64,000 bases of DNA from an uncultured Pseudomonadota bacterium (GCA_963712965.1 CAVQJZ010000007.1:134015-198014), one strand, 5' to 3'; shown: positions 7,887 through 59,093, counted from the first letter of the stretch. The notes: generated by a model from the letters alone, not told the origin. Numbers and translations: made by a program.

Positions 7887-7955
7887 TTAACCCCTATAGA
7901 GGTTAATATTTACTTTACCCCCTATAGGGGTTATTGTACAATTTAACCTCTATAA
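7887..7955. promoter_or_regulatory. Candidate HipB operator array: TTAACC-N8-GGTTAA palindromes (2.5 copies)
   Basis: 7887-7906 TTAACCCCTATAGAGGTTAA; 7916-7933 TACCCCCTATAGGGGTTA; half-site 7944-7955 TAACCTCTATAA. All lie immediately upstream of hipB. Confidence 0.55.
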
Positions 7956-7981
7956 GCAATATTTTTTATTGGAGCAAACAA

Positions 7982-8233
7982 ATGCTTATTCATTCGCCCA
8001 AAGAGCTCGCCCTGTTTATAAGCACTCAGCGCAAAAAGCACAAAAAAAGCCAAGCGCTAATTGGCAATTCAGTGGGATTAAAGCAAACCACTGTTTCTGC
8101 ATTTGAAAACAAACCTGAAAGCACTCAATTAGAAACACTATTTAAAATACTCTCGGCTGCTAATTTGGACTTAAGAATTTCACCTAAAAATGAAACGCCT
8201 GCGGACAAAAACAAATGGAAAAAAGAGTGGTAA
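7982..8233 (+). CDS. hipB: HipB-type XRE-family HTH antitoxin
   Basis: 83 aa from MLIHSPKELALF with GGAG Shine-Dalgarno at 7971. HTH segment SQALIGNSVGLKQTTVSAFEN. Directly precedes hipA. Confidence 0.8.
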   Translation: MLIHSPKELALFISTQRKKHKKSQALIGNSVGLKQTTVSAFENKPESTQLETLFKILSAANLDLRISPKNETPADKNKWKKEW

Positions 8234-8235
8234 CC

Positions 8236-9543
8236 ATGAAAAATAAAAATCGAGTTCTCAGCGTCTTAATGAATGGCATTTTAGTAGGTCACTTAGAGAA
8301 AAAAAATAACACGGGTTTTATATTCACCTATCATCAGGGTTGGCTAGACACACCAGGTGCTCGCCCTATTTCCCTATCATTGCCATTACTACATCAACCC
8401 TTTACAGGAGATGTTGTCTATAATTTTTTTGATAATCTACTTCCAGACAGCCCTCAGATAAGAGCACGCATTCAAACCGCGTTTCAAACACCGACCAATC
8501 AAGCATTTGACCTGCTCGCCAGCATTGGAAAAGATTGTATCGGAGCGGTACAGATTATTGATGGCCCCATATCCATTTTCAAAAAGCAGATCAATTACAA
8601 ATCGCTCGATGAAAAAGAAATCGCTTCTTTATTAAGCGGCTATCAAGAATATCCTCTTGGTATGACCAATGCTTCTGATGACTTTAGGGTATCAATTGCG
8701 GGTGCACAAACAAAAGCTGCTTTTTTATACCATAAAAAAACCTGGAACAGGCCATTAGGAACAACTCCTACCAGTCATATATTCAAGTTGCCTATTGGCT
8801 ATATTCAACACCAACACATTGACCTCAGTGATAGCTGTGAAAACGAATGGTTGTGCTCACAAATTGCGCAAGCATTTGGTTTACCTGTAGCCAAGTCTGA
8901 AATTTTACATTTCGACCAGGTAAAAGCATTAGTTGTTGAAAGGTTTGATCGTAAATTATCCAGTGATAAGACGTGGTTAATGAGATTGCCTCAAGAAGAT
9001 ATATGTCAAGCACTGGGTATTTCTTCTCACTTAAAGTATCAATCAGATGGCGGACCGGACATACGGATTATTATGCGTTTATTGTTAGGCTCTGCAAATC
9101 CAACCAAAGATCGAGATACTTTTTTCCGTTCTCAAATTTTGTTTTGGTTGCTCGCCGCCATTGACGGTCATGCAAAAAATTTTAGCTTATTTATTGAACC
9201 CGAAGGCAAATATCGATTAACGCCACTATATGACATTTTGTCTGCGCACCCTTTAATAGCAAAAAAACAATTGCAGAGGCAGAAAATAAAAATGGCTATG
9301 GCACTGAAAGGAAAAAATAATCATTACCATTGGCATAACGTGCAACGTAGATTTTTTTTGGATACAGCTAAAGCGGCAAATTATTCATCAAAAAAGGCTG
9401 AACAACTACTTGATGAAATGTTAGAACAAATGGATTCTGTTATTGAAGCAGTATCGACTCAATTACCAAAAAAATTCCCTACTCACATTGCGGAAGCAAT
9501 TTTTGACGGCATGCGTTTGACAAAACGTAAGCTGACAACCTAA
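8236..9543 (+). CDS. hipA: HipA-family serine/threonine kinase toxin
   Basis: 435 aa. HipA N-terminal/coupling region (LVGHLEK...FTYHQGW) and kinase core (SIAGAQTKAAF, DGHAKNFSL). Confidence 0.9.
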   Translation: MKNKNRVLSVLMNGILVGHLEKKNNTGFIFTYHQGWLDTPGARPISLSLPLLHQPFTGDVVYNFFDNLLPDSPQIRARIQTAFQTPTNQAFDLLASIGKDCIGAVQIIDGPISIFKKQINYKSLDEKEIASLLSGYQEYPLGMTNASDDFRVSIAGAQTKAAFLYHKKTWNRPLGTTPTSHIFKLPIGYIQHQHIDLSDSCENEWLCSQIAQAFGLPVAKSEILHFDQVKALVVERFDRKLSSDKTWLMRLPQEDICQALGISSHLKYQSDGGPDIRIIMRLLLGSANPTKDRDTFFRSQILFWLLAAIDGHAKNFSLFIEPEGKYRLTPLYDILSAHPLIAKKQLQRQKIKMAMALKGKNNHYHWHNVQRRFFLDTAKAANYSSKKAEQLLDEMLEQMDSVIEAVSTQLPKKFPTHIAEAIFDGMRLTKRKLTT

Positions 9544-10075: not shown

Positions 10076-10936
10076 TTATGCCTCTTCTAAACGTTCTAAA
10101 ATACCATCAAGAATCTCGAGATTTTGATAATGAATCACTAATTTTCCGCGGCCTTTGCTGGTATGTTCTAATTTTACTTGTGTACCTAAACGATCGGAAA
10201 GACGTTGTTCGAGTTTTAAAATATCAGGATCGGCAGTAGGCGATTTTTTGTGCGTGGCTAATGTTTGTTGCCAATGTTTTACCAAATGCTCGGTTTGACG
10301 CACGGAAAGATTTTTATCCACCACCATTTGCGCGGCTTTAGTTTGATCATTTGACGTTAACGCCAATAATACTTTGGCATGTCCCTGGCTTAATAAATTA
10401 TCTTGAATTAATTTTTTCACGGGCGCGGGCAATTCTAATAAACGAATTAAATTAGTGACTGTTGCGCGCGATTTACCGACAGCATCGCCAACTTGTTGCT
10501 GCGTTAAAGAAAACTCTTCTAATAATCGTTGCAACGCAATGGCTTCTTCAATGGGATTTAAATCTTCGCGCTGAATATTTTCAATTAACGCCATCGCAAT
10601 AGCCGCTTCATCTTTCACATCGCGAATTAATACAGGCACATCTGACAAACCGGCTAATTGTGCAGCACGCCAACGACGCTCACCGGCAATAATTTCATAA
10701 CGACCATTGGTCACTGAACGCACAACAATCGGTTGAATAATGCCTTGCGCACGAATAGAGTCGGCTAATTCTTGCAAGGATTCTTTGGCAATTTCTTGAC
10801 GTGGTTGATATTTACCCGTTTGCAATTGATCAATGGATAACTGTGTTAACTTGCCGTTCACGGGAGAATTTTTTTCTGACGTTGGCGCACCACCACTTAA
10901 TAACGAATCTAATCCACGGCCTAATCCACGCTTCAT
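10076..10936 (-). CDS. parB: Chromosome partitioning protein ParB (Spo0J)
   Basis: 286 aa. GLGRGLDSLL, ParB box IIAGERRWRAA, HTH region. Confidence 0.95.
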   Translation of the reverse strand: MKRGLGRGLDSLLSGGAPTSEKNSPVNGKLTQLSIDQLQTGKYQPRQEIAKESLQELADSIRAQGIIQPIVVRSVTNGRYEIIAGERRWRAAQLAGLSDVPVLIRDVKDEAAIAMALIENIQREDLNPIEEAIALQRLLEEFSLTQQQVGDAVGKSRATVTNLIRLLELPAPVKKLIQDNLLSQGHAKVLLALTSNDQTKAAQMVVDKNLSVRQTEHLVKHWQQTLATHKKSPTADPDILKLEQRLSDRLGTQVKLEHTSKGRGKLVIHYQNLEILDGILERLEEA

Positions 10937-11730
10937 GCTGCTACTTCCACTGTTTGAGTTGAAAAACTTTGTTCCCGTCTTTTAGCTAATTCACTGGCTA
11001 ACGCCGCATACGCTTGCGCACCTGGTGATTGTTTGTCGTATAACACACCTGGCATACCATGACTGGGCGCTTCAGCTAATCGCACATTACGTGGAATAGA
11101 AGTTTCATACACTTTATCACCAAAATGTGTGGTTAATTGTTCAGAAACTTGTAGCGCTAGCGACGTACGACCATCAAACATCGTGCGCAACAAACCTTCA
11201 ATATGTAATTTTTTATTCACGCTCTGACTAATTTTTTCGACGGTATTTAATAAGCTGGTTAATCCTTCCAAAGCATAATATTCACATTGAACAGGAATCA
11301 ACACAGAATCCGATGCGACTAACGCATTAATCGTCAACATATTAAGCGAGGGCGGACAATCAATTAAAATAAAATCAAAACGCCCGCGTACTTGACTGAT
11401 AATTTTGAGTAATCGATGTTCGCGCAATGGCGATTGCAATAAACTAACTTCGGCTTCGGTTAAATCCCCATTGGCGGGTAATACTTCAAATCCCCATTGG
11501 CTGTGTTGCAAGACAGCTGTTAATTCAGCGCGATCTAATAATAAATCATTGATACTATGATCGAGTTGATTTTTATTAATGCCGCATCCCATGGTGGCAT
11601 TACCTTGTGGATCTAAATCAATGAGCAATACTTGATAATGTTGTGCACTTAACGCGGCGGCTAAATTAACACACGTAGTGGTTTTTCCCACCCCGCCTTT
11701 TTGATTGGTAATCGCAATCACTTTTCCCAT
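10933..11730 (-). CDS. parA: Chromosome partitioning ATPase ParA (Soj)
   Basis: 265 aa. Deviant Walker A NQKGGVGKTTT. 4-nt overlap with parB. Confidence 0.95.
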   Translation of the reverse strand: MGKVIAITNQKGGVGKTTTCVNLAAALSAQHYQVLLIDLDPQGNATMGCGINKNQLDHSINDLLLDRAELTAVLQHSQWGFEVLPANGDLTEAEVSLLQSPLREHRLLKIISQVRGRFDFILIDCPPSLNMLTINALVASDSVLIPVQCEYYALEGLTSLLNTVEKISQSVNKKLHIEGLLRTMFDGRTSLALQVSEQLTTHFGDKVYETSIPRNVRLAEAPSHGMPGVLYDKQSPGAQAYAALASELAKRREQSFSTQTVEVAA

Positions 11731-11733
11731 ACG

Positions 11734-12363
11734 CTAGGTTAGGCCTACTTCAATTAAATGACGCTCCGCATCTAACGCAGGAATTTCCAAACGATGTGCG
11801 CCAACAATGGAAAATCCTTCAGGCAAATCTTCTAATTCAATTAAAGGATACACGCCTTTCATGGCTAAAAATCTCCCTTGAGGTTTGGCAAATTTTTTCG
11901 ATGAGATTAAAAATTCACGCAACGTTGAAAACGCACGACAAATAACAGTATCAAAGGGTTCATGTGTCAATTCTTCAACACGTTGATGCACTATTTTAAC
12001 ATTCGTTAAATGTAACGCATGCACAGCCTGCACTAGAAAACGCGTTTTTTTCTGATTGCTGTCGACTAACACAAATTGTTTGTCAGGAAAAATTAATGCT
12101 AACGGAATACCGGGTAATCCAGCGCCTGTGCCCACATCTAAAATGATATTGCCTTTGATAAAAGACGCGATACTTAAACTATCTAATAAATGACGAACCA
12201 CCATCGCATCCAAATCACGAATCGCCGTTAAATTATACGCACGATTCCATTTGGAAATTAATTCAATAAAATTAATTAAGGCATGCTCCACTTTCGCGGG
12301 TTGCGGTTGATTTAATTTATGCAGACCTTGGTGTAACAAATCCAATAATTCAATGCGAGACAT
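11734..12363 (-). CDS. rsmG: 16S rRNA (guanine527-N7)-methyltransferase
   Basis: 209 aa. WNRAYNLTAIRD and SAM motif LDVGTGAGLPGIPLAI. Confidence 0.93.
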   Translation of the reverse strand: MSRIELLDLLHQGLHKLNQPQPAKVEHALINFIELISKWNRAYNLTAIRDLDAMVVRHLLDSLSIASFIKGNIILDVGTGAGLPGIPLALIFPDKQFVLVDSNQKKTRFLVQAVHALHLTNVKIVHQRVEELTHEPFDTVICRAFSTLREFLISSKKFAKPQGRFLAMKGVYPLIELEDLPEGFSIVGAHRLEIPALDAERHLIEVGLT

Positions 12364-13840
12364 AATATATCATTACCTTATCACTACGTTTATTAGCAAA
12401 AACTTTCACCGGTTCGTACGGCAATTGTGCCACCATTTGTTTGAAAGTGGTATTAGCATTATGATCCACACGAATGGCTAACCAATCGTACCCATGAAAG
12501 TGTTTTGTTTTCAATGGTGTAAGATCAAATACTGCACGCGCTTCACGCCAGTGATTAGCATAAAACAATACTTCAGGACTATTACTATAGACAGGTGCGT
12601 TTTCTGCATGCTGTGCTAGCCAATCCCCGCCATCGCGCAAATACGCTTTAGAAACACCGGCAGGCATAACCACAAAATAACTCATCACCACCAAACCCAA
12701 TACCAATAAATAACGTCCCCAACGTGGCCAATGTAACAACCAATACTCCAGCGCAAGCGGTGCCCACAAGAGCAACAAAAAACAACCCGGCACTAAATAA
12801 CGCGAGGCTAAAAAATAATCTTGCGAAAGAAAAATAATAGGGATCAAAAATGTTAATCCCATCACGGCGATCAAAACATATTTGCGATCAGTGTCTAATG
12901 GCAATGGTAAATGCGCCAACGCATAAATGACCAAAATTAAATAAGGCAGTCCCAAAACACCCACAACATTATTAATTAAAAACCCCACTAAACCAGAAAA
13001 TAAAAACACGCCCGCACTTTCACCAATCGAATTCACTAATACTGTTTGCTGTAATTGTTGCGCGACTTGATTAAATTTGTTCACTGTCATCATGAGCCCA
13101 TCACGAAACTCGCCAGCGATTTCATTCAAACGACCCAATTGATTGAGACTGTGATGATGACCAAATAACAACCACAGCAATAAACCCAACACAGATACCC
13201 AAATTAAACTACCCACTTGCACAACTTGCCAACATCGTTTCGACCAAGCAAGCGATTGTTGCAACAATAAAAAAAATGGCGCGAACAAACAAAGAATGGC
13301 GCCTTCCATACGAAATAATGTTCCCATCATTAATAAAAGACCAAAACACCACGCGCGCCACCACGAAGGGTTACGCATATAACATAATAATTGCCAACAA
13401 GAGAGCAACATCAGCGCCCAATAAACCGGATCACGAATAACAAAAATGCGGTGTTTATTCAGTTCTGTAAACAACAACATAACTAAAATACCGCACCACA
13501 AAACAGAACGAGCAACACCACATTCTTGAAGAATTAAAAGATAGGCAACGATAGCCAACGAAATAAAAAATGTATTAATCGCATAGGCGCTATTGAGCAA
13601 ACTTAAATGCGTTAACTGATGCAACCATGCGATACACAAAGAATAAAATGGCCAGGGATAAAGTAATTTGGCTTGTGCTAATCCTTCATGCAAATAGGTT
13701 TTTGCGACTAATAGATAAAGAATTCCATCAAGATTAATAGGTTCATGGTGTGCCAAAAGATTGACTAACGAGATGGCAATGCTCAACAAAAAAGCCCACA
13801 AAAGTAAGCGCTTTTGTGGGCGCATGATGCTATCCACCAA
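12350..13840 (-). CDS. Polytopic inner-membrane protein with a C-terminal soluble domain; GT-C (ArnT/PMT_2)-like glycosyltransferase architecture
   Basis: 496 aa: about 11-13 TM helices, then a ~95-aa hydrophilic tail. The first loop NLDGILYLLVAKTY...PWPFYS resembles the acidic first loop of ArnT/PMT_2 proteins (pattern recognition only). Overlaps the icmX stop by 11 nt and the rsmG start by 14 nt. Confidence 0.45.
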   Translation of the reverse strand: MVDSIMRPQKRLLLWAFLLSIAISLVNLLAHHEPINLDGILYLLVAKTYLHEGLAQAKLLYPWPFYSLCIAWLHQLTHLSLLNSAYAINTFFISLAIVAYLLILQECGVARSVLWCGILVMLLFTELNKHRIFVIRDPVYWALMLLSCWQLLCYMRNPSWWRAWCFGLLLMMGTLFRMEGAILCLFAPFFLLLQQSLAWSKRCWQVVQVGSLIWVSVLGLLLWLLFGHHHSLNQLGRLNEIAGEFRDGLMMTVNKFNQVAQQLQQTVLVNSIGESAGVFLFSGLVGFLINNVVGVLGLPYLILVIYALAHLPLPLDTDRKYVLIAVMGLTFLIPIIFLSQDYFLASRYLVPGCFLLLLWAPLALEYWLLHWPRWGRYLLVLGLVVMSYFVVMPAGVSKAYLRDGGDWLAQHAENAPVYSNSPEVLFYANHWREARAVFDLTPLKTKHFHGYDWLAIRVDHNANTTFKQMVAQLPYEPVKVFANKRSDKVMIYYVSH

Positions 13841-14954
13841 GGCTCTTGTTAATCATGATCTGCTGACTACCCAACGTTGCAGTCGCCATACCATTGGCCT
13901 GCATTTGTATCATCGACATCGTAGCTAGCAATCGTTCATTGGTCATCTGCATTTGCAACATTTGTTGTTGCATTTCTGCTAAGACATACAATGTTTCACG
14001 TTGTAACACAGCAGGCGACGCATTATTCATCGCTTGATACCACGCTGTATTTCCCACACGGCGATTAATCATAAATTTTTCTAATTGCAAAAGACTCGCA
14101 TCAGCCACAGGCTTTTCAGTTCCATCGGTAGGCAATGTCGTCATACCTGCTTGTGTGCCCAAACCTTTGGTGATACTTCGTTCTTGCGCCAAGTAATTTA
14201 AATTGCTGATCGCTAATGATTGAGCCGCAACAATGGCACGCTTTGCTAAAAGAAATTGCTGCACATTAGGGCGTGATAATTGCTGATTACGTGTTGTTGT
14301 ATCGCTACTTAATGCAAGCGTTGGTAATGGTTGTGCCATACCGGATAAAAATGACATTAAATTATTCACTGCTGTTTGCTGTGTACTATCGTAACCATCG
14401 CTACCTAATAAAGTGTCCACATCAAATGCCGAATTATCAACCACCGGACAATTTTGTCCTTGGCAAGGAATAGCTGTGTCAGTACCTGGCACAGACAACA
14501 AGGCTTGTCCAAAAAATAAACTGCTTGGTGATAACAATCTCGTAATATTACTCAACGTCAATTTCGCTGCAGCGCCTACTGTATTTTGATCGGCGGTAAT
14601 TTTTTGCAAATTAAGCGCCATGGTTACATCTGTTTTATAACCACCCACACTTGTCACACTCGCTTTTTCTAACTGGTAAAAGAAATCAGCGTAATTAACA
14701 AGTTGCGCGAGATTGGCACCAATCCAAGGCAAATAAGGCAAAAAATTATAGGCATTCACTTCTGCGGTAGGAACAGCTGCTGTACCTGCTGCAGGTAAAT
14801 TATAAGGCCAAACTAAATTAGGATAACCTGGCGCTGGTACTGTTGGCGCAGCTGCCACATTTCGTGGCGGTGGTGCATATGCGGTGTCAGCAAAACTTGT
14901 GCTAACAGCAAACAAACTTGCCAATAATAATCCCTTTGAAAATAAGTGTTTCAT
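13830..14954 (-). CDS. icmX: Dot/Icm T4BSS periplasmic component IcmX (assigned mainly by synteny)
   Basis: 374 aa. Sec signal MKHLFSKGLLLASLFAVSTSFA, then a Pro/Ala-rich segment. Position downstream of icmW matches Legionella and Coxiella. Confidence 0.6.
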   Translation of the reverse strand: MKHLFSKGLLLASLFAVSTSFADTAYAPPPRNVAAAPTVPAPGYPNLVWPYNLPAAGTAAVPTAEVNAYNFLPYLPWIGANLAQLVNYADFFYQLEKASVTSVGGYKTDVTMALNLQKITADQNTVGAAAKLTLSNITRLLSPSSLFFGQALLSVPGTDTAIPCQGQNCPVVDNSAFDVDTLLGSDGYDSTQQTAVNNLMSFLSGMAQPLPTLALSSDTTTRNQQLSRPNVQQFLLAKRAIVAAQSLAISNLNYLAQERSITKGLGTQAGMTTLPTDGTEKPVADASLLQLEKFMINRRVGNTAWYQAMNNASPAVLQRETLYVLAEMQQQMLQMQMTNERLLATMSMIQMQANGMATATLGSQQIMINKSLGG

Positions 14955-14975
14955 AAAAGCTCCTTGGCTATGCTA

Positions 14976-15407
14976 TTAGCGAAAAATATTAATTGAAGAA
15001 TCCGATGAATTTTTTTGATTGCTGTTATTAGGATTTGCTGGCAAATAAATATTGGGTGGTGTGCTCGCTTGATTTTGATTCGTTGTAGTCGTAGCAGGCA
15101 CATTCGCACTAGAAGTATTGGATTGATTTGGTGGCATTTGTTGTTGTGTCGATGGCGCTGGTGTTGGAGGCACGGGTGCCGCTGGTGCAGCAGGCAATGT
15201 TTTTGTGGGAATACCACTTCGATTATTAATCGTCGGTGCTTGGGGTTGTGGATAATTACGGTTAAATTGATCGGCGGCACTGGCGTTTGATTTATTCAGC
15301 AACTGCTGCATGTGATCCGTATACGGGTTAACGTTTTTATTTTCTTGTGCCCAAGCAAAAACACAAAAAAACAATAACCCACCTGCTATAAAAATATATT
15401 TACGCAT
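14976..15407 (-). CDS. Small exported Pro/Thr/Asn/Gln-rich low-complexity protein between icmW and icmX
   Basis: 143 aa. Signal peptide MRKYIFIAGGLLFFCVFAWA. Body ...PAAPAAPVPPTPAPSTQQQMPPNQSNTSS.... 8-nt overlap with the icmW stop. Coxiella also carries an orphan ORF at this position (from memory). Confidence 0.6.
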   Translation of the reverse strand: MRKYIFIAGGLLFFCVFAWAQENKNVNPYTDHMQQLLNKSNASAADQFNRNYPQPQAPTINNRSGIPTKTLPAAPAAPVPPTPAPSTQQQMPPNQSNTSSANVPATTTTNQNQASTPPNIYLPANPNNSNQKNSSDSSINIFR

Positions 15408-15861
15408 GTTCTTCTCCCTCTAATGCTTTCATGACCAATCCAAAACGCGCTGCTGAAAAAACGCGACTTAATAAACGCAATCGTTCAAACACAATATTGC
15501 GACGCAAAAATAAACCCGCGGCATCATCTGGGCTTTCAGAAATTTCTTCGGCGTGAATTAATAATTTTGATGCGGATCCAGGATGCGCGGTATCAATTGC
15601 TTGCAATAATCGGAGCACACGCGATGTTTTGACATGACAGGCGATACGAATAAATAATTGTTGCTGACCTAACTGCGATAAATCAATAGAACTAATATCA
15701 TCTAATTCTTTGCCTAATGCTTGTAATACATTTTCAACGCTAGCTTGACCATCGAACGTCCAACGTTCAACACCTTCCATAAATATCACCACACGATAAA
15801 CGGATTTATCTTGATATTCGTGCCAAAACTTGTGCACTGCTTCACGACTAAAATCTGGCAT
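15400..15861 (-). CDS. icmW: Dot/Icm type IV adaptor/chaperone IcmW
   Basis: 153 aa. MPDFSREA...YRVVIFMEGVERWTFDG...LRLLQAIDTAHPGSASKLLIHAEE...RNIVFERLRLLSRVF closely matches the L. pneumophila IcmW sequence as I recall it. Confidence 0.9.
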   Translation of the reverse strand: MPDFSREAVHKFWHEYQDKSVYRVVIFMEGVERWTFDGQASVENVLQALGKELDDISSIDLSQLGQQQLFIRIACHVKTSRVLRLLQAIDTAHPGSASKLLIHAEEISESPDDAAGLFLRRNIVFERLRLLSRVFSAARFGLVMKALEGEEHA

Positions 15862-16016
15862 ACATTTTGAGACCTATGCGAAAGTGAACTATCCACCTGA
15901 GTATAGTAAATGTCCTTTCGTTGTCAATTTATTATACCTTTAATCAACATGGCGCTTTGTCATTGATGTGCTATGCTTATCTACCATGGATTTTTATTTT
16001 TTATCAGCGGGTGTTT

Positions 16017-16466
16017 ATGGGAATAAAATCAGGCACTAAAAAGTTTTTCAAACCTCTCGTAGATGTCCCTTCATGGATTGGCTTTGGTCAATTAAAAGAA
16101 CGTACCGGCTATATTGCCAGCGTTATCAAAAATATTTTTACTATAGACAAACCTTCTGAGTCCAAAGAAACATTTGACGAAGCCGCAAAAAGACTTCATC
16201 TAGATGAAGCTACACTTTCAAGAAGACAGAAAGGGTTTCAACGTCTTGTAATAATTTATCTCGTGCTAAGCCTCACTATAACTACCTATCTAATTTACTC
16301 ATTGTGGCAATCTGCTTGGCTTGCGAGCATGGCATCTTTTGGAATTTTAGCAGTCCTGCTGGGACAATTGTTTCGATATCACTTTTGGTTATTCCAACTT
16401 CGTCAACGTCGATTAGGTTGCACTTTTCGTGAGTGGCTCAATGGTTTGGTAGGTAGGGCAAAATGA
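16017..16466 (+). CDS. icmV: Dot/Icm inner-membrane protein IcmV
   Basis: 149 aa from MGIKSGTKKFFKPLVDVPSWIGFGQLKE, two TM helices. Divergent from icmW and ATGA-coupled to dotA, as in Legionella region I. Confidence 0.8.
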   Translation: MGIKSGTKKFFKPLVDVPSWIGFGQLKERTGYIASVIKNIFTIDKPSESKETFDEAAKRLHLDEATLSRRQKGFQRLVIIYLVLSLTITTYLIYSLWQSAWLASMASFGILAVLLGQLFRYHFWLFQLRQRRLGCTFREWLNGLVGRAK

Positions 16467-18997
16467 AACGCTTATTAGTTCTATTATTCACCGTATTTTT
16501 TTCGCCTTTAGTATTGGCGCAATCTATTGGCTCAATTGGAAACCTGAGCCTTACACCACCGCCAGGCGATGTGTCTGTTGCATTTTTGAGCAATATATTT
16601 GGCTCTGTCGACGGCGTTCTTCATGGTTCTGGCAGCCAATTACTCGGCAACATGTTTGGCGTATTTAATGCCGCCGTACTTTTTTTGGGTGGCCTTGTCA
16701 TACTTTACACACTGCTTATTTCTACTTTAAACACAGCGCACGAGGGTGAAGTATTAGGAAAAGATTGGTCTTCCATTTGGGTACCTCTGAAAATGGTTAC
16801 GGGTATCGCATTACTAATTCCTAAAGCAAGCGGCTATTCATTCATTCAGATATTTATGATGTGGGTAGCAGTAATGGGCATCGGTGCTGCGGACAGCATG
16901 TGGAATGTTGCGGTGAACTACCTCTCTCAGGGTGGCTCTCTCATACAACAAAATCAACCTGTTCCTGCTTCACTGTTGACGAATTCTGGCACTGTTTTTA
17001 AATCACTCGCTTGCACTTTCACACTGCAAAACCAATTGAAACAATACCGCAATGATCAAATTAGTAATGGCGTTCAACCAATTGCTGTTGTACCCGATTT
17101 TTATCAAGCAATCCTAACTGCACTAAATACAAACGGAAGCTCTGGATTAGTACAATTCCCGCCAAGCACACTACCGGCACCTTACGATAAGCTTGCTGGC
17201 GCCTGTGGTTCAGTTTCTTGGACGGCAGCATCAGCGAAAGTACTTCCTTACTATGTATTCGACGATAACCATCGGATGTTACCTCAATACCACTACATGA
17301 GTGCTGCCTACAACAGCGCGAAGAAACAAGCTGTCTCTGAAATAATCACTAACCTCGTGCCTGGCGCCATATTAGCTGCCGCTAATTACGATCGCAGCAA
17401 ATTACCGCTTGGTAAAATGTTGTCAACGAGCCCATTGCAATGGGGATGGGATGATAACAAACCATACATTCTGCCTGGATCACTTTTAAGCGATTCAGCA
17501 TCGAGCTATATGGCAATCATGTCACCCGTTGTACGCACACTCACAGCTTCCAGCAGTAGCTCCATTTATAATACCAAAGACTTAGCAAACAGTAAGGACC
17601 AGGGCTGGGCGTTGGCTTCTACTTACTATTACGATATTACTCAAGCAAATACCTATGCCACCAGCGCATGGAGTTCAGCCGCTGACTTTACAGCGACTGG
17701 CCCATCAAATGATTTAAGTAATTCGTCAATTATTACCAGCGTACTTCCGGCGAATAGTGCTTACGTTGGAAACATTAATACGATGGTAAATGGCAACGCT
17801 AATTATGCGATACCTTCTTATCTTACTCAGGCAACCTCGTATGGCCAGCAACTTACTTATGGAAGAGTAACTCCTGTCAACAGTTATCGGGATGCGTTGG
17901 GCGGTGGTGATAGCGGAGAAATAGTTGCCGCTCTGTTGAGCGCGGTCAGCCAAGGGATGACTGAAGTATTTGAAGGGTTTTGGAATTTAGAAAATGCGCA
18001 AGGGACAAATGAAGATCCTGTTATCTCCGTAGCAAGATTGGGCGCTGGCTTGGTCAGTCAGTCAGTCACATGGATGATCACCATTTCCGGCATCGTATTT
18101 GATATTACTTTTGCAATGGGCGCATTTTTTGGCACTACTTTTTCATCTGCGATGCTCGCTTTGATCACACCATTAACTTCTGCACTAACACCTATATTCG
18201 TTCTGCTTTTGACAACTGGAATAACGTTAGCTTTTTACCTCCCTCTTATACCTTTTATCTTATTCACCTTCGGTGTAGTGGGTTGGTTTATCACAGTAAT
18301 TGAAGCGATGTGCGCTGCTCCGCTTGTAGCACTCGGAATAACTCATCCTGGCGGGCATCCGATTTTGGGTAAGGCTGATCCCGCGGTATTATTGCTCGTC
18401 AACGTATTTATTCGACCAACACTGATGATCATCGGCCTTCTGGTTGGAATGATGCTAAGTTATGTGAGCGTATGGCTTCTCAATAAAGGGTTTTTTCATA
18501 TTATTTCTTCGAGCGTGTGGCCAGTACTAGGAGGTCTTTCATTTTGGTTTGCCTGGGTAGGAGTTTTAATTGTCTATACAGCTGTCATCGTGCAACTAAT
18601 GCATAAAAGTTTTTCGCTCACCTACGTTATACCAGATCAAGTATTCAAATGGATCGGTACCAATATTCAAGGCATGGGTGGTGAAGAACAAGCAGAACAA
18701 GCAATTGCTGGCAGCGTCCACAAAGCAGCTGAAGGCGCTGCTTCTGCTGTAGGCACAGCAACGAAAGGCATGGGTGAAGCAGGCGAAAAAGTCGGCGGCG
18801 CAGTCCATAGCGCAGCAGGAAAAGCTGTGAGCACAGTACAAAAAGGTGCCCAAACTGCTATCAGCGCTGTTGGCAGTGTAGCGGGGAGTGCTGGTGGTGG
18901 CGGTGGTGGTGGCGGCGGCGGTGCCGTTGGTGGTGTCACCAAAGCCGGCAGCGGAGTAATCCAAGGCGCCAACGTCATGGATGCTGAGAAGAAATAG
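16463..18997 (+). CDS. dotA: Dot/Icm polytopic membrane protein DotA
   Basis: 844 aa: signal/TM, large periplasmic loop, cluster of C-terminal TM helices, Ala/Gly-rich tail. Position icmV-dotA. Confidence 0.85.
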   Translation: MKRLLVLLFTVFFSPLVLAQSIGSIGNLSLTPPPGDVSVAFLSNIFGSVDGVLHGSGSQLLGNMFGVFNAAVLFLGGLVILYTLLISTLNTAHEGEVLGKDWSSIWVPLKMVTGIALLIPKASGYSFIQIFMMWVAVMGIGAADSMWNVAVNYLSQGGSLIQQNQPVPASLLTNSGTVFKSLACTFTLQNQLKQYRNDQISNGVQPIAVVPDFYQAILTALNTNGSSGLVQFPPSTLPAPYDKLAGACGSVSWTAASAKVLPYYVFDDNHRMLPQYHYMSAAYNSAKKQAVSEIITNLVPGAILAAANYDRSKLPLGKMLSTSPLQWGWDDNKPYILPGSLLSDSASSYMAIMSPVVRTLTASSSSSIYNTKDLANSKDQGWALASTYYYDITQANTYATSAWSSAADFTATGPSNDLSNSSIITSVLPANSAYVGNINTMVNGNANYAIPSYLTQATSYGQQLTYGRVTPVNSYRDALGGGDSGEIVAALLSAVSQGMTEVFEGFWNLENAQGTNEDPVISVARLGAGLVSQSVTWMITISGIVFDITFAMGAFFGTTFSSAMLALITPLTSALTPIFVLLLTTGITLAFYLPLIPFILFTFGVVGWFITVIEAMCAAPLVALGITHPGGHPILGKADPAVLLLVNVFIRPTLMIIGLLVGMMLSYVSVWLLNKGFFHIISSSVWPVLGGLSFWFAWVGVLIVYTAVIVQLMHKSFSLTYVIPDQVFKWIGTNIQGMGGEEQAEQAIAGSVHKAAEGAASAVGTATKGMGEAGEKVGGAVHSAAGKAVSTVQKGAQTAISAVGSVAGSAGGGGGGGGGGAVGGVTKAGSGVIQGANVMDAEKK

Positions 18998-19010
18998 GAG
19001 TAAGACACAG

Positions 19011-19805
19011 ATGATAAATCACAGAGATTTTGAATCATTACTTGACGCCATCAATGATGGATCTTCAACAGCCATCAAACGATTTGTTCAGTACATGTAC
19101 TATCATCATCAGGCAATCGATAATGCGACTTATCAGCAACATCAAAAAATAGCTTTCGATTATTTTTCTGAAAAAGCACGCGAGGGCAACCCGATTGCTC
19201 AAGCGTGTTTGACTATCCTTTATCTGAGTGATTTTGGTGATCCTACCATTGCAGCAACCAAAGCGTTCGAGTGGGCACGCCGCTCAGCAGCATCAGGCAA
19301 CACTGATGGCGAAAGTTTATTGGGATATCTTTATCTCGACGGCATTGGTATTACACAAAATTACACCCACGCAATGGAATGGCTACAAAAAGCCGCTGAA
19401 AAAAACCATTCAACTGCTATAAATAACATAGGCGTAATTTATGAAAACGGCCTTGGCGTAACTAAAAACTTAAAAGAAGCTCTCAAATGGTATCGCAAAA
19501 GCGCTGAACAAGATGACGCAGTTGCCGAGCAAAACTTGGGTCGTTGTTACAGTCAAGGTATTGGTGTTACACAAGATTTCACTGCTGCTATCCAATGGTA
19601 TGAACGCGCAATAGAAAAAGGCCACCCTTCTGCACTAAACAATTTAGGATTTATGTATGAAAACGGATATGGCGTCGAAGTCAATCTTAGAAAAGCCATC
19701 GAATATTATTTAAAAGCGGCTAAAGCTTTCAAACCAATTGCATTGGCTAATCTTGAACGTTTGAGAAAAAATGGTCACGAAAAATTGATCGAAGAATTAA
19801 GCTAA
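19011..19805 (+). CDS. Sel1-like repeat (SLR) protein
   Basis: 264 aa from MINHRDF with AGGAG Shine-Dalgarno at 18996-19000, inside the dotA 3' end. At least five SLR units (A..W..KAAE.G...A..NLG..Y..G.GV..N...A..WY.KA). Confidence 0.85.
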   Translation: MINHRDFESLLDAINDGSSTAIKRFVQYMYYHHQAIDNATYQQHQKIAFDYFSEKAREGNPIAQACLTILYLSDFGDPTIAATKAFEWARRSAASGNTDGESLLGYLYLDGIGITQNYTHAMEWLQKAAEKNHSTAINNIGVIYENGLGVTKNLKEALKWYRKSAEQDDAVAEQNLGRCYSQGIGVTQDFTAAIQWYERAIEKGHPSALNNLGFMYENGYGVEVNLRKAIEYYLKAAKAFKPIALANLERLRKNGHEKLIEELS

Positions 19806-20957
19806 CCCTGCATCTTTATCAGCATTTTTTGCACTCGCTAATAATAATTTATAATCGCGTTGTGAAATAATGCCTTCTTTAAATCTTCTTTCAGCATCGA
19901 CTTCCATCGGCTGACCACGTTCTTTTAATAAACGCCGAGTAACTGCTGTCACCTCATCCAAATCTGCTTCTAATAAAACATCACGCGTCTTATCATCAAA
20001 AATTAAATACTCACGTAACGCTACACGTTTGCCATCTACCGTCGGCACTAATTTTTGCCAAATGGCTAAACGAATCGTTTCTAAAATATCGATCGTTCGA
20101 CCATGACGTTCTTCCGCTGGAAATGTCGTCACCAAACGACGCACGGCTTCTGCTACACCATTACTGTGTAGCGTGGTGTAAACCGGATGGCCGGTTAATG
20201 CTGCTTCTAATACAGCGCTCATGGTTTCTTGATCACGCGCTTCACCCACTAAAATTAATCGCGGTTTACGACGCAGTGCGTTGCGTACCCCAGCAGCAAA
20301 TGAAGGTAAATGACGAGGAATTTCGGTTTGACTGACAATCGAATTTGGCATTTGAATTCCGTCGTACACAAATTCAATTGGCGCTTCATAGGTTAATACT
20401 TTGCGATGACTCTCATTATTTTCCACCAAATTACGAATAATCGATGCGAGCAATGTACTTTTACCTGAGCCTGTTGCACCAGTGATGTAAACCACACCTT
20501 GATAAGGAGCAACTGCTGCCAAAATATCTGGCGGCAAATCCATTTCTTCTAAATGGGGTGGCATACTCGGAATAGTACGCAATGTAATTTGAATTGCATC
20601 ATGCCCTTCCACCATACAACCTGTGGCATTCACACGATAACGAAAACGTTCGCCACGACTTGGGCGAACTTCATAATGCGTATCGACATCCACGCCATTT
20701 AAAATTTGCGCGGTACCATTTGGGCCATAAATAGCATTTAATACTTCGCCTACTTCGGTATTGGATAATTTACGATGCGTAATTCGATGCAACCTGCCAT
20801 AAATTTCTGCATAAATTGGCTCGCCGGTTTGCAATGTAATATCAGACGCACCTAATTGTTGTGTAAATGCCAACATGCGATCTGTTTCTGCAGGCGTGAA
20901 ACGCAAAGGCTCATTCGACAATAAATAATTTTCATTTAATTCACTGACCTTGCTCAT
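19797..20957 (-). CDS. dotB: Dot/Icm hexameric ATPase DotB (PilT/VirB11-like)
   Basis: 386 aa from MSKVSELNEN. Walker A GATGSGKST. ATGA overlap with the dotC stop. Confidence 0.93.
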   Translation of the reverse strand: MSKVSELNENYLLSNEPLRFTPAETDRMLAFTQQLGASDITLQTGEPIYAEIYGRLHRITHRKLSNTEVGEVLNAIYGPNGTAQILNGVDVDTHYEVRPSRGERFRYRVNATGCMVEGHDAIQITLRTIPSMPPHLEEMDLPPDILAAVAPYQGVVYITGATGSGKSTLLASIIRNLVENNESHRKVLTYEAPIEFVYDGIQMPNSIVSQTEIPRHLPSFAAGVRNALRRKPRLILVGEARDQETMSAVLEAALTGHPVYTTLHSNGVAEAVRRLVTTFPAEERHGRTIDILETIRLAIWQKLVPTVDGKRVALREYLIFDDKTRDVLLEADLDEVTAVTRRLLKERGQPMEVDAERRFKEGIISQRDYKLLLASAKNADKDAGLA

Positions 20958-21784
20958 TGTTGTTCCGTCCGTAACGCAGGATTCCATTGTTGGCTATTGG
21001 ATTGCAATGCAGGCAATGCGGTAATACGCAGTATTTGATCGTTAATATTTAAGCTTGATCCGCCACCTGTCACACCTAAGTTCGTTTTAGCAACAAACGG
21101 CGCGCTGACCATATTTTGTGCGCGCAAATTACGATAGAGCAACATGCCGTTATAATCTCTTTCTAAACGCGAAAGATTTTGCGCATAAATTTCATTTGCT
21201 TGTTGAATCCCTTCTTTCCAACCTTTGTCGATTAATTCTTTCCACAATTTCACTTCTTGTGGTGTTTGCGGCAAAACACTTTTATCTGGCACAGCTGGCA
21301 ATGGATAATGCATCCATAAATAATCACGCCATGTGGGCGGTGTGGTGACAAATTGTGCTTGGCTAATAATTTCATACGCACGATCCGCTAAACGAATCGT
21401 ATCTGGCCCATCAAGATTTAACGTTTGACGCGCTTCGGTTAATACGGGTGGCAAAATATTATGTGGCAATAAAAGTGCACCAAAATTATAAATGCGATCT
21501 AATTGTGAACTACGCTCTTCTAACGTTTGATTAACTTCAGCGGCACGCCAATGCAAACCTGATTGCGCACCAATGCTCATGGCGGTTTCTTTTAATGCGG
21601 CTTCACGCATTGAACTAATGACATCTACTTTTTTCTTAACTGTTGGCGGAGAGGAATGCAAATCCTTCAAACCCTCCAATGTAGCCGTATTGCCTTTGCT
21701 GTCATCGAAATGAGTTTCGGTTGTCGCACATGCTGTCAACCACAAACATCCAGCAATGATTAACAAAATTCGGCCCATAGACAT
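20954..21784 (-). CDS. dotC: Dot/Icm outer-membrane core lipoprotein DotC
   Basis: 276 aa. Lipobox (IAGC/LTAC). dotD-dotC-dotB order. Confidence 0.8.
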   Translation of the reverse strand: MSMGRILLIIAGCLWLTACATTETHFDDSKGNTATLEGLKDLHSSPPTVKKKVDVISSMREAALKETAMSIGAQSGLHWRAAEVNQTLEERSSQLDRIYNFGALLLPHNILPPVLTEARQTLNLDGPDTIRLADRAYEIISQAQFVTTPPTWRDYLWMHYPLPAVPDKSVLPQTPQEVKLWKELIDKGWKEGIQQANEIYAQNLSRLERDYNGMLLYRNLRAQNMVSAPFVAKTNLGVTGGGSSLNINDQILRITALPALQSNSQQWNPALRTEQQ

Positions 21785-21790
21785 AACGTG

Positions 21791-22282
21791 CTAGTTCCTT
21801 GCGTAACGAACTTCGATAATTTTAGCCTGAGGGAGTACTGCAATATTAGCTTGGCTACCACATTGATAATCTGCATCACGCAAAATATAAGCCAGCGGAA
21901 CATTTTTCACATCGAGCGTCACTAAAACGGGAATTGCTGGCGGTACACCCAAAACACGCATTTTATAACCGGCCGCTTGTGCAACTTTTTTGACCAATGG
22001 ACCAACAGGCCCTGACCAATCTAGTGAAGCTAACGTATCCAATCCTGGCTCTGAAGGTTGTGGCAACTGCTTCATCACTAATCCAGGTGTAGTGGCACGT
22101 TGAATGGCCGCTGTATTTAATGATGCTTGGCTTACTGTGCTCGCCGCTTCTGCTAATTTAATTGAGGCATTACTGGTGGCAACAAGCGCTTGTGTTTTTT
22201 GTTGATTGCTTGCGCAACTGGTTAATAACAATCCTGATACAACAACGGCAACTAGTCGTTTGATATCCATAACACTCTTCAA
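21791..22282 (-). CDS. dotD: Dot/Icm outer-membrane core lipoprotein DotD
   Basis: 163 aa (the same length as L. pneumophila DotD as I recall). Lipobox LLTSC. First gene of dotDCB. Confidence 0.8.
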   Translation of the reverse strand: MKSVMDIKRLVAVVVSGLLLTSCASNQQKTQALVATSNASIKLAEAASTVSQASLNTAAIQRATTPGLVMKQLPQPSEPGLDTLASLDWSGPVGPLVKKVAQAAGYKMRVLGVPPAIPVLVTLDVKNVPLAYILRDADYQCGSQANIAVLPQAKIIEVRYARN

Positions 22283-22331: not shown

Positions 22332-22904
22332 TCAAGGCAAAGTCGGCTGCATTAAATGGTATTGAATTTGTTGTGTTTTACCGCTTTTTAAAATACGCCA
22401 ATGCGCAGGAATTGGCAGAGTTTTTAATTCACGCTCCACTTCGATATAAATAAATGTTTGTGCATGAATTAATTTTTTTTCTTCCAACCATTGCGCGCAT
22501 TCTTTTAATAACGATTGATGAAAAGGCGGATCTAAAAAAACAATATCGAACGGTTCTTCTGATGACAGCGCTAACCCTTGCGGCACATTGGTTTCATAAA
22601 TAGCAATGTTGTTTGCTTGCAACGCTAAACTATTCGCACGCAATTGTTGAACGACCACAGGTGATTTATCTGCCATCACAACGTATTTAGCACCACGCGA
22701 TAACGCTTCGAAACTTAATGCACCACTGCCCGCAAATAAATCCAAACAATTAGCATCCACAATATAAGGCGCTAACCAATTAAATAATGTTTCGCGCACA
22801 CGATCGGGCGTGGGTCGTACTTCTTCTAATGCAGGAAAATTAATTTTGCGACCGCGCCACTGGCCACCGATGATTCGTACTTGGGATAAATTTTGTTTAG
22901 ACAT
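22332..22904 (-). CDS. rsmD: 16S rRNA (guanine966-N2)-methyltransferase
   Basis: 190 aa. RIIGGQWRGRKINFP, DLFAGSGALSFEALSRGA, FLDPPF. Confidence 0.9.
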   Translation of the reverse strand: MSKQNLSQVRIIGGQWRGRKINFPALEEVRPTPDRVRETLFNWLAPYIVDANCLDLFAGSGALSFEALSRGAKYVVMADKSPVVVQQLRANSLALQANNIAIYETNVPQGLALSSEEPFDIVFLDPPFHQSLLKECAQWLEEKKLIHAQTFIYIEVERELKTLPIPAHWRILKSGKTQQIQYHLMQPTLP

Positions 22905-23119
22905 TAATGTTGCGTAGAAATACCACGATGAATTTCTTCGACCTGCTCAACAGAAAGTCCAGTCACGCTTGTAATAAAATCAATTGTTGAACCACTGTGT
23001 AATAGACGAACAGCCACTTCATGCATGCCCTCAACACGGCCTTTTTCTATGCCTTCTTGCAGACCAGCTAAGTGGCCTTGCTGTATACCTTCAGCTCTCA
23101 ACATATCGGCGAGTGTCAT
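22904..23119 (-). CDS. Possible intragenic RpnS-like small protein (71 aa), in frame with the Rpn C-terminus
   Basis: Internal ATG at 23119-23117 preceded by AGGAG with 8-nt spacing (TTAGGAGAAAAAGCCATG, read on the minus strand). E. coli Rpn genes are reported to encode such an internal antitoxin. Confidence 0.3.
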   Translation of the reverse strand: MTLADMLRAEGIQQGHLAGLQEGIEKGRVEGMHEVAVRLLHSGSTIDFITSVTGLSVEQVEEIHRGISTQH

Positions 23120-23866
23120 GGCTTTTTCTCCTAAAGGTGGCGATAACGCAGTTGTTAATTCAGCTAAAAATTCGGATTTACTCTTAATCTCAGCCGTACT
23201 AACGACATATTTCAGTATAGCTAATACATAATCTTCTGAACCATTATTTTCTAAATAGTTAATCAGGTCAACGACTTGCTTGATTTTGGGGATGATATCT
23301 CTGGCAAACACATGTTTCATCATGAACTCCATTAAGCCTGCCCATTGATGTGAGCGTAGCTCTTCATCAGGAATTTGAGTCAGATCGATCAATTGGAATG
23401 GATTAGAAAAAAGCTCTTTTGCTAAAGCCGCATGAGGACCAAAAAGATCGAACAAGCTAGTTGAGTAAGGATAAGGTTGTTTGCCATTGAAAAAGATCAT
23501 GGGATAAACTACTGGCAACACATCTGTTTTTTGTTCTTTTAAGTGCTGTTCAATAATACGCAGAGTATATTTAAGTAAGCGAAAAGGCATTAAGACTTGT
23601 GCCTGGGATTGGTGTTCCACCAACACATAAAGATAACCCTGTTCATCACCCAAAAAATCCACAGAGTAAAGCATGTCAGTCATGCTGTTGCGCAGTTCTT
23701 GATCGATATAACTTTCTTTGCGGATAGCCAATGACGACAAATCAATTTTATCGCGAAGATAAGCAGGCAGGTGATGGGTAAAGAAATCTTTGGCTACATT
23801 AAGATTCGACATGACGTGTTTAAACACTTTGTCGTGTGGCGAAGCAATTTTATTATTGTTGCTCAT
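22904..23866 (-). CDS. Rpn-family recombination-promoting nuclease / putative transposase (PD-(D/E)xK, YhgA-like)
   Basis: 320 aa. HDKVFKHVMSN...AKDFF..HLP......DLSSL......YIDQELR...DMLYSV......YLYVLVEHQS is the typical Rpn/Transposase_31 N-terminus. Confidence 0.85.
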   Translation of the reverse strand: MSNNNKIASPHDKVFKHVMSNLNVAKDFFTHHLPAYLRDKIDLSSLAIRKESYIDQELRNSMTDMLYSVDFLGDEQGYLYVLVEHQSQAQVLMPFRLLKYTLRIIEQHLKEQKTDVLPVVYPMIFFNGKQPYPYSTSLFDLFGPHAALAKELFSNPFQLIDLTQIPDEELRSHQWAGLMEFMMKHVFARDIIPKIKQVVDLINYLENNGSEDYVLAILKYVVSTAEIKSKSEFLAELTTALSPPLGEKAMTLADMLRAEGIQQGHLAGLQEGIEKGRVEGMHEVAVRLLHSGSTIDFITSVTGLSVEQVEEIHRGISTQH

Positions 23867-58970: not shown

Positions 58971-59093
58971 CTTGCACCCCCCTGATTAAGCCTCTAGAAA
59001 CCATCTCTGCCCGAGTTGAGCGACATTCTACGACAAACTGCCCAATCTTTGTCTATACTTATTTCTAGCGGTAAAGCCAAAAGGGAGCAATCC

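Follow-up and report, generated by a model that had tools for sequence, protein, structure and literature searches.

A 64,000-nucleotide (nt) stretch of DNA from an uncultured Pseudomonadota bacterium (GCA_963712965.1 CAVQJZ010000007.1:134015-198014; hereafter the window, with positions counted from its start) carries, on the minus strand between 10 and 16 kb, a co-oriented and tightly packed run of genes in the order icmW-orf143-icmX-GT-C-rsmG-parA-parB, of which icmW is the first. The icmW-icmX part of this run, together with the Dot/Icm block at 15921-22282, is a 'region I'-type arrangement with an extra small open reading frame (ORF), orf143, between icmW and icmX. The subject of this work is the gene between icmX and rsmG, which encodes a membrane protein of about 500 amino acids (aa). 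An earlier note on this DNA had described the product as a glycosyltransferase of GT-C architecture, and had proposed that it forms a protein-glycosylation module dedicated to the Dot/Icm system with the exported, Pro/Thr-rich products of orf143 and icmX. The results presented below uphold the architecture, but point to lipopolysaccharide (LPS), rather than to a part of the Dot/Icm machine, as the substrate.

An AlphaFold2 (AF2) model of the protein, built on an alignment of 48 homologues, reached a predicted local distance difference test (pLDDT) score of 92.8 and a predicted template-modelling (pTM) score of 0.91; it supersedes an earlier, poor model built on five sequences (pLDDT 63). The model begins with a transmembrane helix (TM1) and a first external loop that is helical (residues 31-80). 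Another ten membrane helices follow, and then an alpha/beta C-terminal domain of about 100 aa, extending from about residue 397 to 496. We read this topology as 11 membrane passes, with the N-terminus in and the C-terminus out; ten membrane helices, an even number, separate loop 1 from the C-terminal domain, and the sidedness is a reading of the model; a positive-inside count from the DSSP helix ends was uninformative. The layout agrees with the 11-13 membrane helices and the C-terminal domain of about 95 aa that had been noted from the sequence. When the model was compared with the PDB using Foldseek, a check that the earlier note had named beforehand, GT-C enzymes filled all of the top 35 places, with 22 at E<=1e-3. 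The list comprised STT3, PglB, AglB, ArnT, ALG12, ALG9, DPY19, AftB, AftD, PIG-U, Pmt4, Pmt1/2, AftA, and EmbA/B, and the same list of GT-C enzymes was obtained with the poor five-sequence model. Among the matches were STT3 (3e-6), PglB (2e-5), and ArnT (5f15, 8e-5, template-modelling score (TM-score) 0.54/0.50), and the highest TM-score was that of ALG12 (0.59/0.61). We conclude that the window protein is almost certainly a GT-C-fold glycosyltransferase.

Conservation across the family is highest in the loop-1 motif PINLDG(38)...YPWPFYS. The acidic first-loop residue that had been singled out from the sequence is D38, which lies in PINxDG directly after TM1 and is invariant (48/48 and 160/160 sequences). 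Other invariant or nearly invariant residues are W63-P64, R136, F176-R177-x-E179-G180, P188, R347-Y348, K398, W407, N420, N483, and D487. Among 160 members that are not linked to icmX, D38, R177, E179, and R347 are kept in 100%, R136 and F176 in 99%, and W63 and W407 in 97%. According to the model, all of the polar conserved residues would be positioned on the external side, which would fit a GT-C active site.

Word-indexed homologue searches found five to six relatives, badly understating the family, and an exhaustive profile search was needed to recover it. With a threshold of E<=1e-3, that search returned 2395 representatives; 1017 clusters at 50% identity remained at E<=1e-30, and nearly all of the proteins were about 500 aa long and matched end to end. 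The window protein had no match in Pfam (no Wzy_C/PF04932, no PF02366, no MIR, and no PMT_2 at E<=0.1), and PDB sequence searches with two profiles gave chance matches only. The sole curated model that it matched was NCBIfam NF047440 (Leptospira LA_3751/LA_3752 putative glycosyltransferase), at 7e-6 over residues 281-389. This model is matched by 13 of 48 family members, at about 25 bits versus a cut-off of 200 bits, and the LA_3751/LA_3752 family is itself uncharacterised. RefSeq names the family protein of one cultured bacterium (WP_167187582.1, Pseudomaricurvus/Aestuariicella hydrocarbonica) 'hypothetical protein'. The protein is a member of a distinct, unnamed family within the GT-C superfamily, for which there is no curated Pfam or NCBIfam model.

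The ArnT/PMT_2-type layout that had been read from the sequence was borne out by the fold of ArnT, and a sequence relationship with ArnT was not found. ArnT (GT83, the lipid A 4-amino-4-deoxy-L-arabinose transferase; 5f15/5ezm) shares with the window protein the GT-C fold, a size of about 500-550 aa, a small C-terminal domain (predicted to be periplasmic in the window protein), and an acidic residue where external loop 1 begins. The association of the window protein's family with LPS genes, described below, would further imply that it, like ArnT, acts on lipid A-core at the periplasmic face. ArnT has 13 membrane helices, whereas we count about 11 in the window protein. Alignment of the family profile with E. 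coli ArnT using hhalign gave a probability of 0.1%, and with the PDB sequence searches empty as well, an ArnT homologue at the sequence level was rejected. No arn genes or arnBCADEF-type donor pathway were present in the window or in the related loci inspected. The PMT enzymes (GT39, PF02366) were represented among the Foldseek matches by Pmt4 and Pmt1-2 (E of about 0.03-0.05, about 260 residues aligned), and they have a conserved loop-1 Asp as well. However, PF02366 was touched by one of 48 family members (0.007) and not by the window protein, MIR domains are missing, and PMT identity was rejected on these grounds; the genomic context of the family, moreover, is LPS and not protein secretion. 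The weak PMT_2 (PF13231) matches in eight of 48 members (best 2e-8), with none for the window protein, suggest a distant relationship only.

We examined the neighbourhoods of family members in loci of 3-17 kb each, 17 from species-representative genomes, 26 from metagenomes, and five from the contigs of the first homologues; neighbouring ORFs were called and clustered, and recurrent clusters were identified by profile. At least one lipid A/LPS-core gene was found in 37 of the 46 loci that are not linked to icmX, and in 33 of the 46 such a gene is the immediate neighbour. An LpxL-type late acyltransferase gene (Pfam 3e-58) is immediately upstream of the family gene in ten loci. Other neighbours encode LpxK (1e-86), WaaA (4e-64), heptosyltransferase II (TIGR02195, 1.5e-79), HldE (2e-223), glycosyltransferases of family GT4, and small soluble GT2 transferases, and LptF/G was identified in one locus. 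A recurrent ABC-transporter cluster, for which the sole Pfam record is ABC_tran, is read by us as MsbA-like from its position. A representative order, where X is the family gene, is waaA-lpxK-waaF-waaC-lpxL-X-GT2-rfaP (L039). In many loci, a two-domain kinase of about 455-489 aa is encoded directly beside the family gene (L007, 3805-5274; L055, 8327-9784; L039, 8329-9780; L001, 4695-6062). The L007 kinase consists of an RfaP half (7e-93, above the curated cut-off) and a half resembling 3-deoxy-D-manno-octulosonic acid (Kdo) kinase/RfaY; the L055 kinase gave weaker RfaY-, RfaP-, and Kdo-kinase-like matches, and in L001 the C-terminal half alone was matched. The recurrent pairing suggests phosphorylated core sugars, or positions beside them, as possible sites of action of the GT-C enzyme. 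The hosts of these loci are Gammaproteobacteria, Methylophilaceae, Methylococcales, Desulfobacterales, and similar free-living groups, and no icmX was seen in the examined flanks of the 46 loci.

A second polytopic protein of unknown function (c52; about 535 aa and about ten membrane helices) is encoded one gene away from the GT-C gene in two unrelated loci (L003, 1122-2741(-); L043, 2547-4145(-)). It had no Pfam or NCBIfam match, and a paralogue of the GT-C family was rejected on the basis of an hhalign probability of 0.6%.

One interpretation of these results, which we hold with moderate confidence, is that the family comprises periplasmic GT-C enzymes of a new kind that modify the lipid A-core of LPS with a single sugar, following a logic like that of ArnT and the Rgt enzymes. 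The rhizobial RgtA-D and Francisella FlmK proteins are lipid A/core-decorating GT-C enzymes related to ArnT. Because the family normally sits in LPS-core gene clusters, the window protein most probably modifies LPS rather than being an additional Dot/Icm component. At the inner membrane's outer face, the enzyme would draw its sugar from a polyprenyl-phosphate-linked donor, as do ArnT and rhizobial Rgt, and would transfer it to lipid A-core after flipping of the latter by MsbA. D38 in the first external loop would serve as the catalytic or acceptor-activating residue, and R136, R177/E179, and R347/Y348, in the presumed external loops, might bind the donor phosphate. In a single clade of uncultured bacteria that carry Dot/Icm, the gene has ended up between icmX and rsmG, where it is probably co-transcribed with its neighbours. 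On our best reading, the icmX junction goes back to a gene order inherited within a compact genome rather than to a function specific to Dot/Icm.

Several observations weigh against this interpretation. No family member is characterised, and it is the gene neighbourhood alone that points to LPS as the acceptor. An LPS-core (waa) neighbourhood was found for the family and not for the window copy: neither an LPS gene nor a GT2/GT4 partner nor a polyprenyl-phosphate-sugar synthase occurs in the 64-kb window, and the only conserved neighbours of the GT-C gene in the window's clade, in six genomes, are icmX and rsmG. The fold by itself would not separate a lipid acceptor from a protein acceptor, the best Foldseek E-values obtained with the model are those to protein-glycosylating oligosaccharyltransferases (OSTs), and the missing sequence relationship with ArnT, noted above, counts on the same side. 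Since genes for LPS, donor synthesis, or a second glycosyltransferase are missing from the window, the function of the window copy has to be judged from its family membership and its retained residues. We assessed the latter using 56 alignment columns that are at least 80% conserved in the 160 members not linked to icmX. The six icmX-linked proteins keep 80-96% of these columns, compared with 90 +/- 7% in the others (10th percentile 80%), and none of the invariant polar residues is lost from them, in the C-terminal domain or elsewhere. Retention at this normal rate gives no sign of neofunctionalisation in the icmX-linked copies.

One alternative is that the acceptor is some other periplasmic or envelope molecule, as in general protein O-glycosylation, pilin modification, or the modification of another glycolipid or glycan, and that the association with LPS genes reflects shared regulation of envelope functions. 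The acceptors of the GT-C enzymes matched by Foldseek are indeed very diverse, and nine of the 46 loci have no LPS gene in the examined flanks. These include five Legionellales-like metagenome-assembled genomes (MAGs) with the order glnE-X-xseA and a locus in which the family gene is next to AmiC (L004); in a further locus (L045), the gene is beside mrcA-pilNOPQ. However, a lipid A/core gene is the immediate neighbour in the majority of loci, as stated above, and several of the contigs without an LPS gene are just 3-5 kb long. The glnE-X-xseA order looks like the remnant of a waa cluster, because glnE borders waaF/waaC in two other loci (L020 and L022). We consider a different envelope acceptor unlikely, although it is the alternative that fares best.

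A second alternative is that the enzyme is an LPS en-bloc ligase or oligosaccharyltransferase, that is, a GT-C analogue of WaaL that transfers an undecaprenyl-pyrophosphate-linked glycan onto lipid A-core. A ligase gene is often found in the slot of the waa cluster that the family gene occupies. The best Foldseek E-values (3e-6 to 1e-4) were those of STT3, PglB, and AglB, OSTs that use pyrophosphate-linked oligosaccharides and share with the window protein the membrane-domain topology and an Asp in the first external loop that is putatively catalytic in the window protein. In addition, no Wzy_C/WaaL protein was found among the unassigned multi-spanning neighbours scanned, a search limited to flanks of 6-8 kb and to some of the ORFs. 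On the other hand, the window protein has no WWDxG-type motif, its C-terminal domain of about 100 aa is much smaller than that of the OSTs (more than 250 aa), and there is no pgl-type cluster. The TM-scores with STT3, PglB, and AglB (0.45-0.54) are matched or exceeded by those with the monosaccharide transferases ALG12 and ArnT. WaaL itself was not represented among the 50 Foldseek matches listed, and the window protein does not match PF04932. An en-bloc ligase therefore appears improbable to us, and more so than a different envelope acceptor.

The remaining alternative is the one from which the earlier note had started, in which the GT-C protein is a Dot/Icm accessory, co-expressed with icmW-orf143-icmX, that O-glycosylates the Pro/Thr-rich exported tracts as PMT or TfpW do. 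A precedent for protein O-glycosylation by a GT-C enzyme in Gram-negative bacteria is available in TfpW of Pseudomonas aeruginosa, a GT-C enzyme that arabinosylates Ser/Thr of pilin (bioRxiv 10.1101/2020.04.19.049825). TfpW resembles the proposed accessory in glycosylating an exported protein encoded next door. Linkage to the pilin substrate is a feature of all known occurrences of TfpW, whereas the window family is linked to icmX in one clade only.

We determined how far the linkage holds, starting from IcmX homologues and from the nearest relatives of the GT-C protein. The order icmW-orf-icmX-GT-C-rsmG-parA-parB was found in six distinct genomes, those of the window and of L005, L023, L024, L028, and L029. 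The GT-C protein of L005 is 76% identical to that of the window, and the others are just 37% (L024), 35% (L028), 32% (L023), and 31% (L029) identical. A first neighbor-joining (NJ) tree, without bootstrap, placed all six icmX-linked proteins in one clade; in the bootstrapped NJ analysis, five of the six formed a clade with 79% support, and the placement of L029 received 20%. The adjacency of icmX and the GT-C gene is old and not a one-off, and counts in favour of the accessory. It lies, however, in a frozen block, dotD...icmX-[GT-C]-rsmG-parA-parB-hemJ, in which rsmG, parA, parB, and hemJ follow icmX just as faithfully. Moreover, L025 (GCA_964559315.1) and L026 (JGI 3300056798) have the block without the GT-C gene, with about 140 nt between icmX and the start of rsmG, and a more distant icmX (L027, 25% identity) is followed by hemD. 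Linkage across Dot/Icm lineages, as a Dot/Icm component would show, is not the pattern observed: linkage to icmX in related genomes, a check that the earlier note had named, held for six genomes of one clade, and failed for L025, L026, L027, and the 46 other family loci. A close relative of L026 is L045, as judged from PilN, PilO, PilP, and PilQ (74, 68, 82, and 87% identical). L045 has the order GT4-GT-C-mrcA-pilNOPQ, in which the partner of the family member is not icmX but a GT4 like those found beside the family in other loci. By extrapolation from L045, the enzyme appears to persist in the lineage of L026 although its junction with icmX does not.

The spacing between icmX and the GT-C gene also bears on the linkage. 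From a TTG at 13840, the GT-C gene would overlap the icmX stop by 11 nt, as the earlier note had it; the public record of the protein starts five codons further on, at an ATG that is 4 nt past the icmX TAG, so that the overlap holds for one start and not for the other, with the genes tightly packed in either case. A Shine-Dalgarno-like motif, GGTGGA, lies 7 nt upstream of the ATG within the 3' end of icmX, and the ATG is the more likely start. The proximity and the placement of this motif could be taken in favour of a Dot/Icm accessory. Across the six genomes, the icmX/GT-C spacing is -11 or +4, +10, -4, +137, 0, and +24 nt. At its 3' end, the GT-C gene overlaps the start of rsmG by 14 nt in the window, L023, L024, and L028, with a similar overlap in L005, and this overlap is more constant than the spacing from icmX. 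The best sigma-70-like match in the region, from a consensus scan only, is TTGACA-16-TATACT (11/12) at 15900-15927(-). It precedes icmW by 39 nt and could be the promoter of the entire icmW-to-parB run. Another point against the accessory is a terminator-like hairpin at 13794-13821(-), right after the icmX stop and within GT-C codons 7-18. It consists of an 11-bp stem (six GC pairs) and a T-run, TTTTTTGTTG, and the region folds at -26.6 kcal/mol (z -2.96). The hairpin might dampen transcription running on from icmX into the GT-C gene. L005, the nearest relative, lacks it, and the attenuation model was set aside for that reason. A search for PmrA-type tandem TTAAT boxes was uninformative (19 found versus 21.6 expected).

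The proposed acceptors have the features that had been ascribed to them: the icmX-like and orf143 products both have signal-peptide-like N-termini and Pro/Thr/Ser/Ala-rich tracts. The 374-aa product of the icmX-like gene, with its signal peptide, Pro-rich N-terminal tract, and conserved C-terminal helices, matches IcmX_IVB in its C-terminal part, far below the curated cut-off, and has a conserved position after icmW; its homologues (40-88% identity) always follow icmW-orf. The small orf143 family is found, in this group, always between icmW and icmX (31-40% identity; 14976-15407(-) in the window, 6567-6977 in L023, 6564-6983 in L024, 6549-6971 in L025, and 6581-6973 in L026). Its members share a signal peptide, an N-terminal helix (NPYVExMQQxFNQA...FDKxYP), an S/T/P/N-rich linker, and a C-terminal NIY...NIFR. 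The orf143 linker is equally Pro-rich in L025 and L026, where there is no adjacent GT-C gene, and the Pro-rich N-terminal tract of IcmX is present in all group members. As the tracts persist without an adjacent GT-C gene, they do not track the junction. In Coxiella burnetii, the gene at the position of orf143 is cbu1651, a positional counterpart only, and Coxiella does not need the ORF in that place for Dot/Icm function (PMC4117601). The paper on the in-situ near-atomic structure of DotA-IcmX contains no occurrence of 'glycos'. Neither the dispensability in Coxiella nor the silence of that paper excludes glycosylation in the window's clade.

A Dot/Icm-dedicated module is not supported in view of the LPS-core home of the family in 37 of 46 loci, the block without a GT-C gene, the retention of the tracts regardless of the junction, and the unchanged conserved positions of the icmX-linked clade, and we regard it as very improbable. 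The same low probability applies to the variant in which an LPS-type GT-C enzyme was captured into the icmW-orf-icmX unit and now O-glycosylates the periplasmic tracts of IcmX and the small-ORF product; if true, type IVB secretion systems would thereby gain their first glycosyltransferase accessory. The outcome is largely deflationary for Dot/Icm biology, since the junction is best read as adding no new machine component. Its by-product is a set of more than 1000 clusters, at 50% identity, of high-confidence GT-C enzymes in waa-type clusters of diverse Proteobacteria and Desulfobacterota. The LPS interpretation that we prefer leads further, in that the family suggests that lipid A-core maturation includes a periplasmic step not yet described, which could affect outer-membrane charge, resistance to antimicrobial peptides, and innate immune recognition.

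Genes of the icmW-parB run and of the adjoining Dot/Icm block, with window positions, strands, and supporting matches
Feature	Position	Strand	Evidence or remark
parB	10076-10936	-	downstream of parA
parA	10933-11730	-	downstream of rsmG
rsmG (gidB)	11734-12363	-	Pfam GidB 1.5e-56; TIGR00138
GT-C gene	12350-13840	-	496 aa from TTG 13840 (491 aa from ATG 13825); intact ORF
icmX-like	13830-14954	-	374 aa; NCBIfam IcmX_IVB 6e-11 over residues 216-354
orf143, exported protein with Pro/Thr/Ser/Asn-rich linker	14976-15407	-	translation
icmW	15400-15861	-	Pfam IcmW 6.5e-55; NCBIfam IcmW_IVB 2.3e-51
icmV	15921-16466	+	NCBIfam equivalog
dotA	16463-18997	+	NCBIfam equivalog
Sel1-repeat gene	18981-19805	+	
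dotB	19797-20987	-	NCBIfam equivalog
dotC/TraI-like	20954-21784	-	Pfam T4SS_TraI 5e-81
dotD	21791-22282	-	NCBIfam equivalog
rsmD	22332-22904		bounds the Dot/Icm block

Five large ORFs elsewhere in the window, at 26485-28314 (609 aa), 30187-34677 (1496 aa), 39639-41507 (622 aa), 41629-45246 (1205 aa), and 59016-60794 (592 aa), had no match in the library against which each was scanned (NCBIfam and/or Pfam), and are possible Dot/Icm effector candidates. An Rfam scan of the window found one tRNA and nothing else. Between hemJ and tsaD (7934-9543(+)), there is a toxin-antitoxin pair consisting of HipB-like (99 aa) and HipA-like (442 aa) proteins, encoded on the strand opposite to the surrounding housekeeping run and having no counterpart at that position in L023-L026. 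A gene resembling the Rpn-family recombination-promoting nuclease/transposase (22904-23866(-)) adjoins rsmD where the Dot/Icm block ends on its far side, and may be relevant to the assembly or movement of the block.

Within the block, the Sel1/TPR-repeat gene overlaps the 3' end of dotA by 17 nt at its start and reaches into that of dotB at its end, and a homologue (cluster c19) occupies the same position in L023-L026. The C-terminal tail of DotA (18880-18960(+)) is a Gly/Ala/Ser stretch of low complexity, with ten glycines in a row (GSAGGGGGGGGGGAVGG). In the sister lineage whose junction has no GT-C gene, two DotA-like genes of about 810-890 aa each, which belong to the same BLAST cluster as the dotA of the window, flank icmV (L025, 397-5992; L026, 568-6033); the pair looks like a tandem dotA paralogue.

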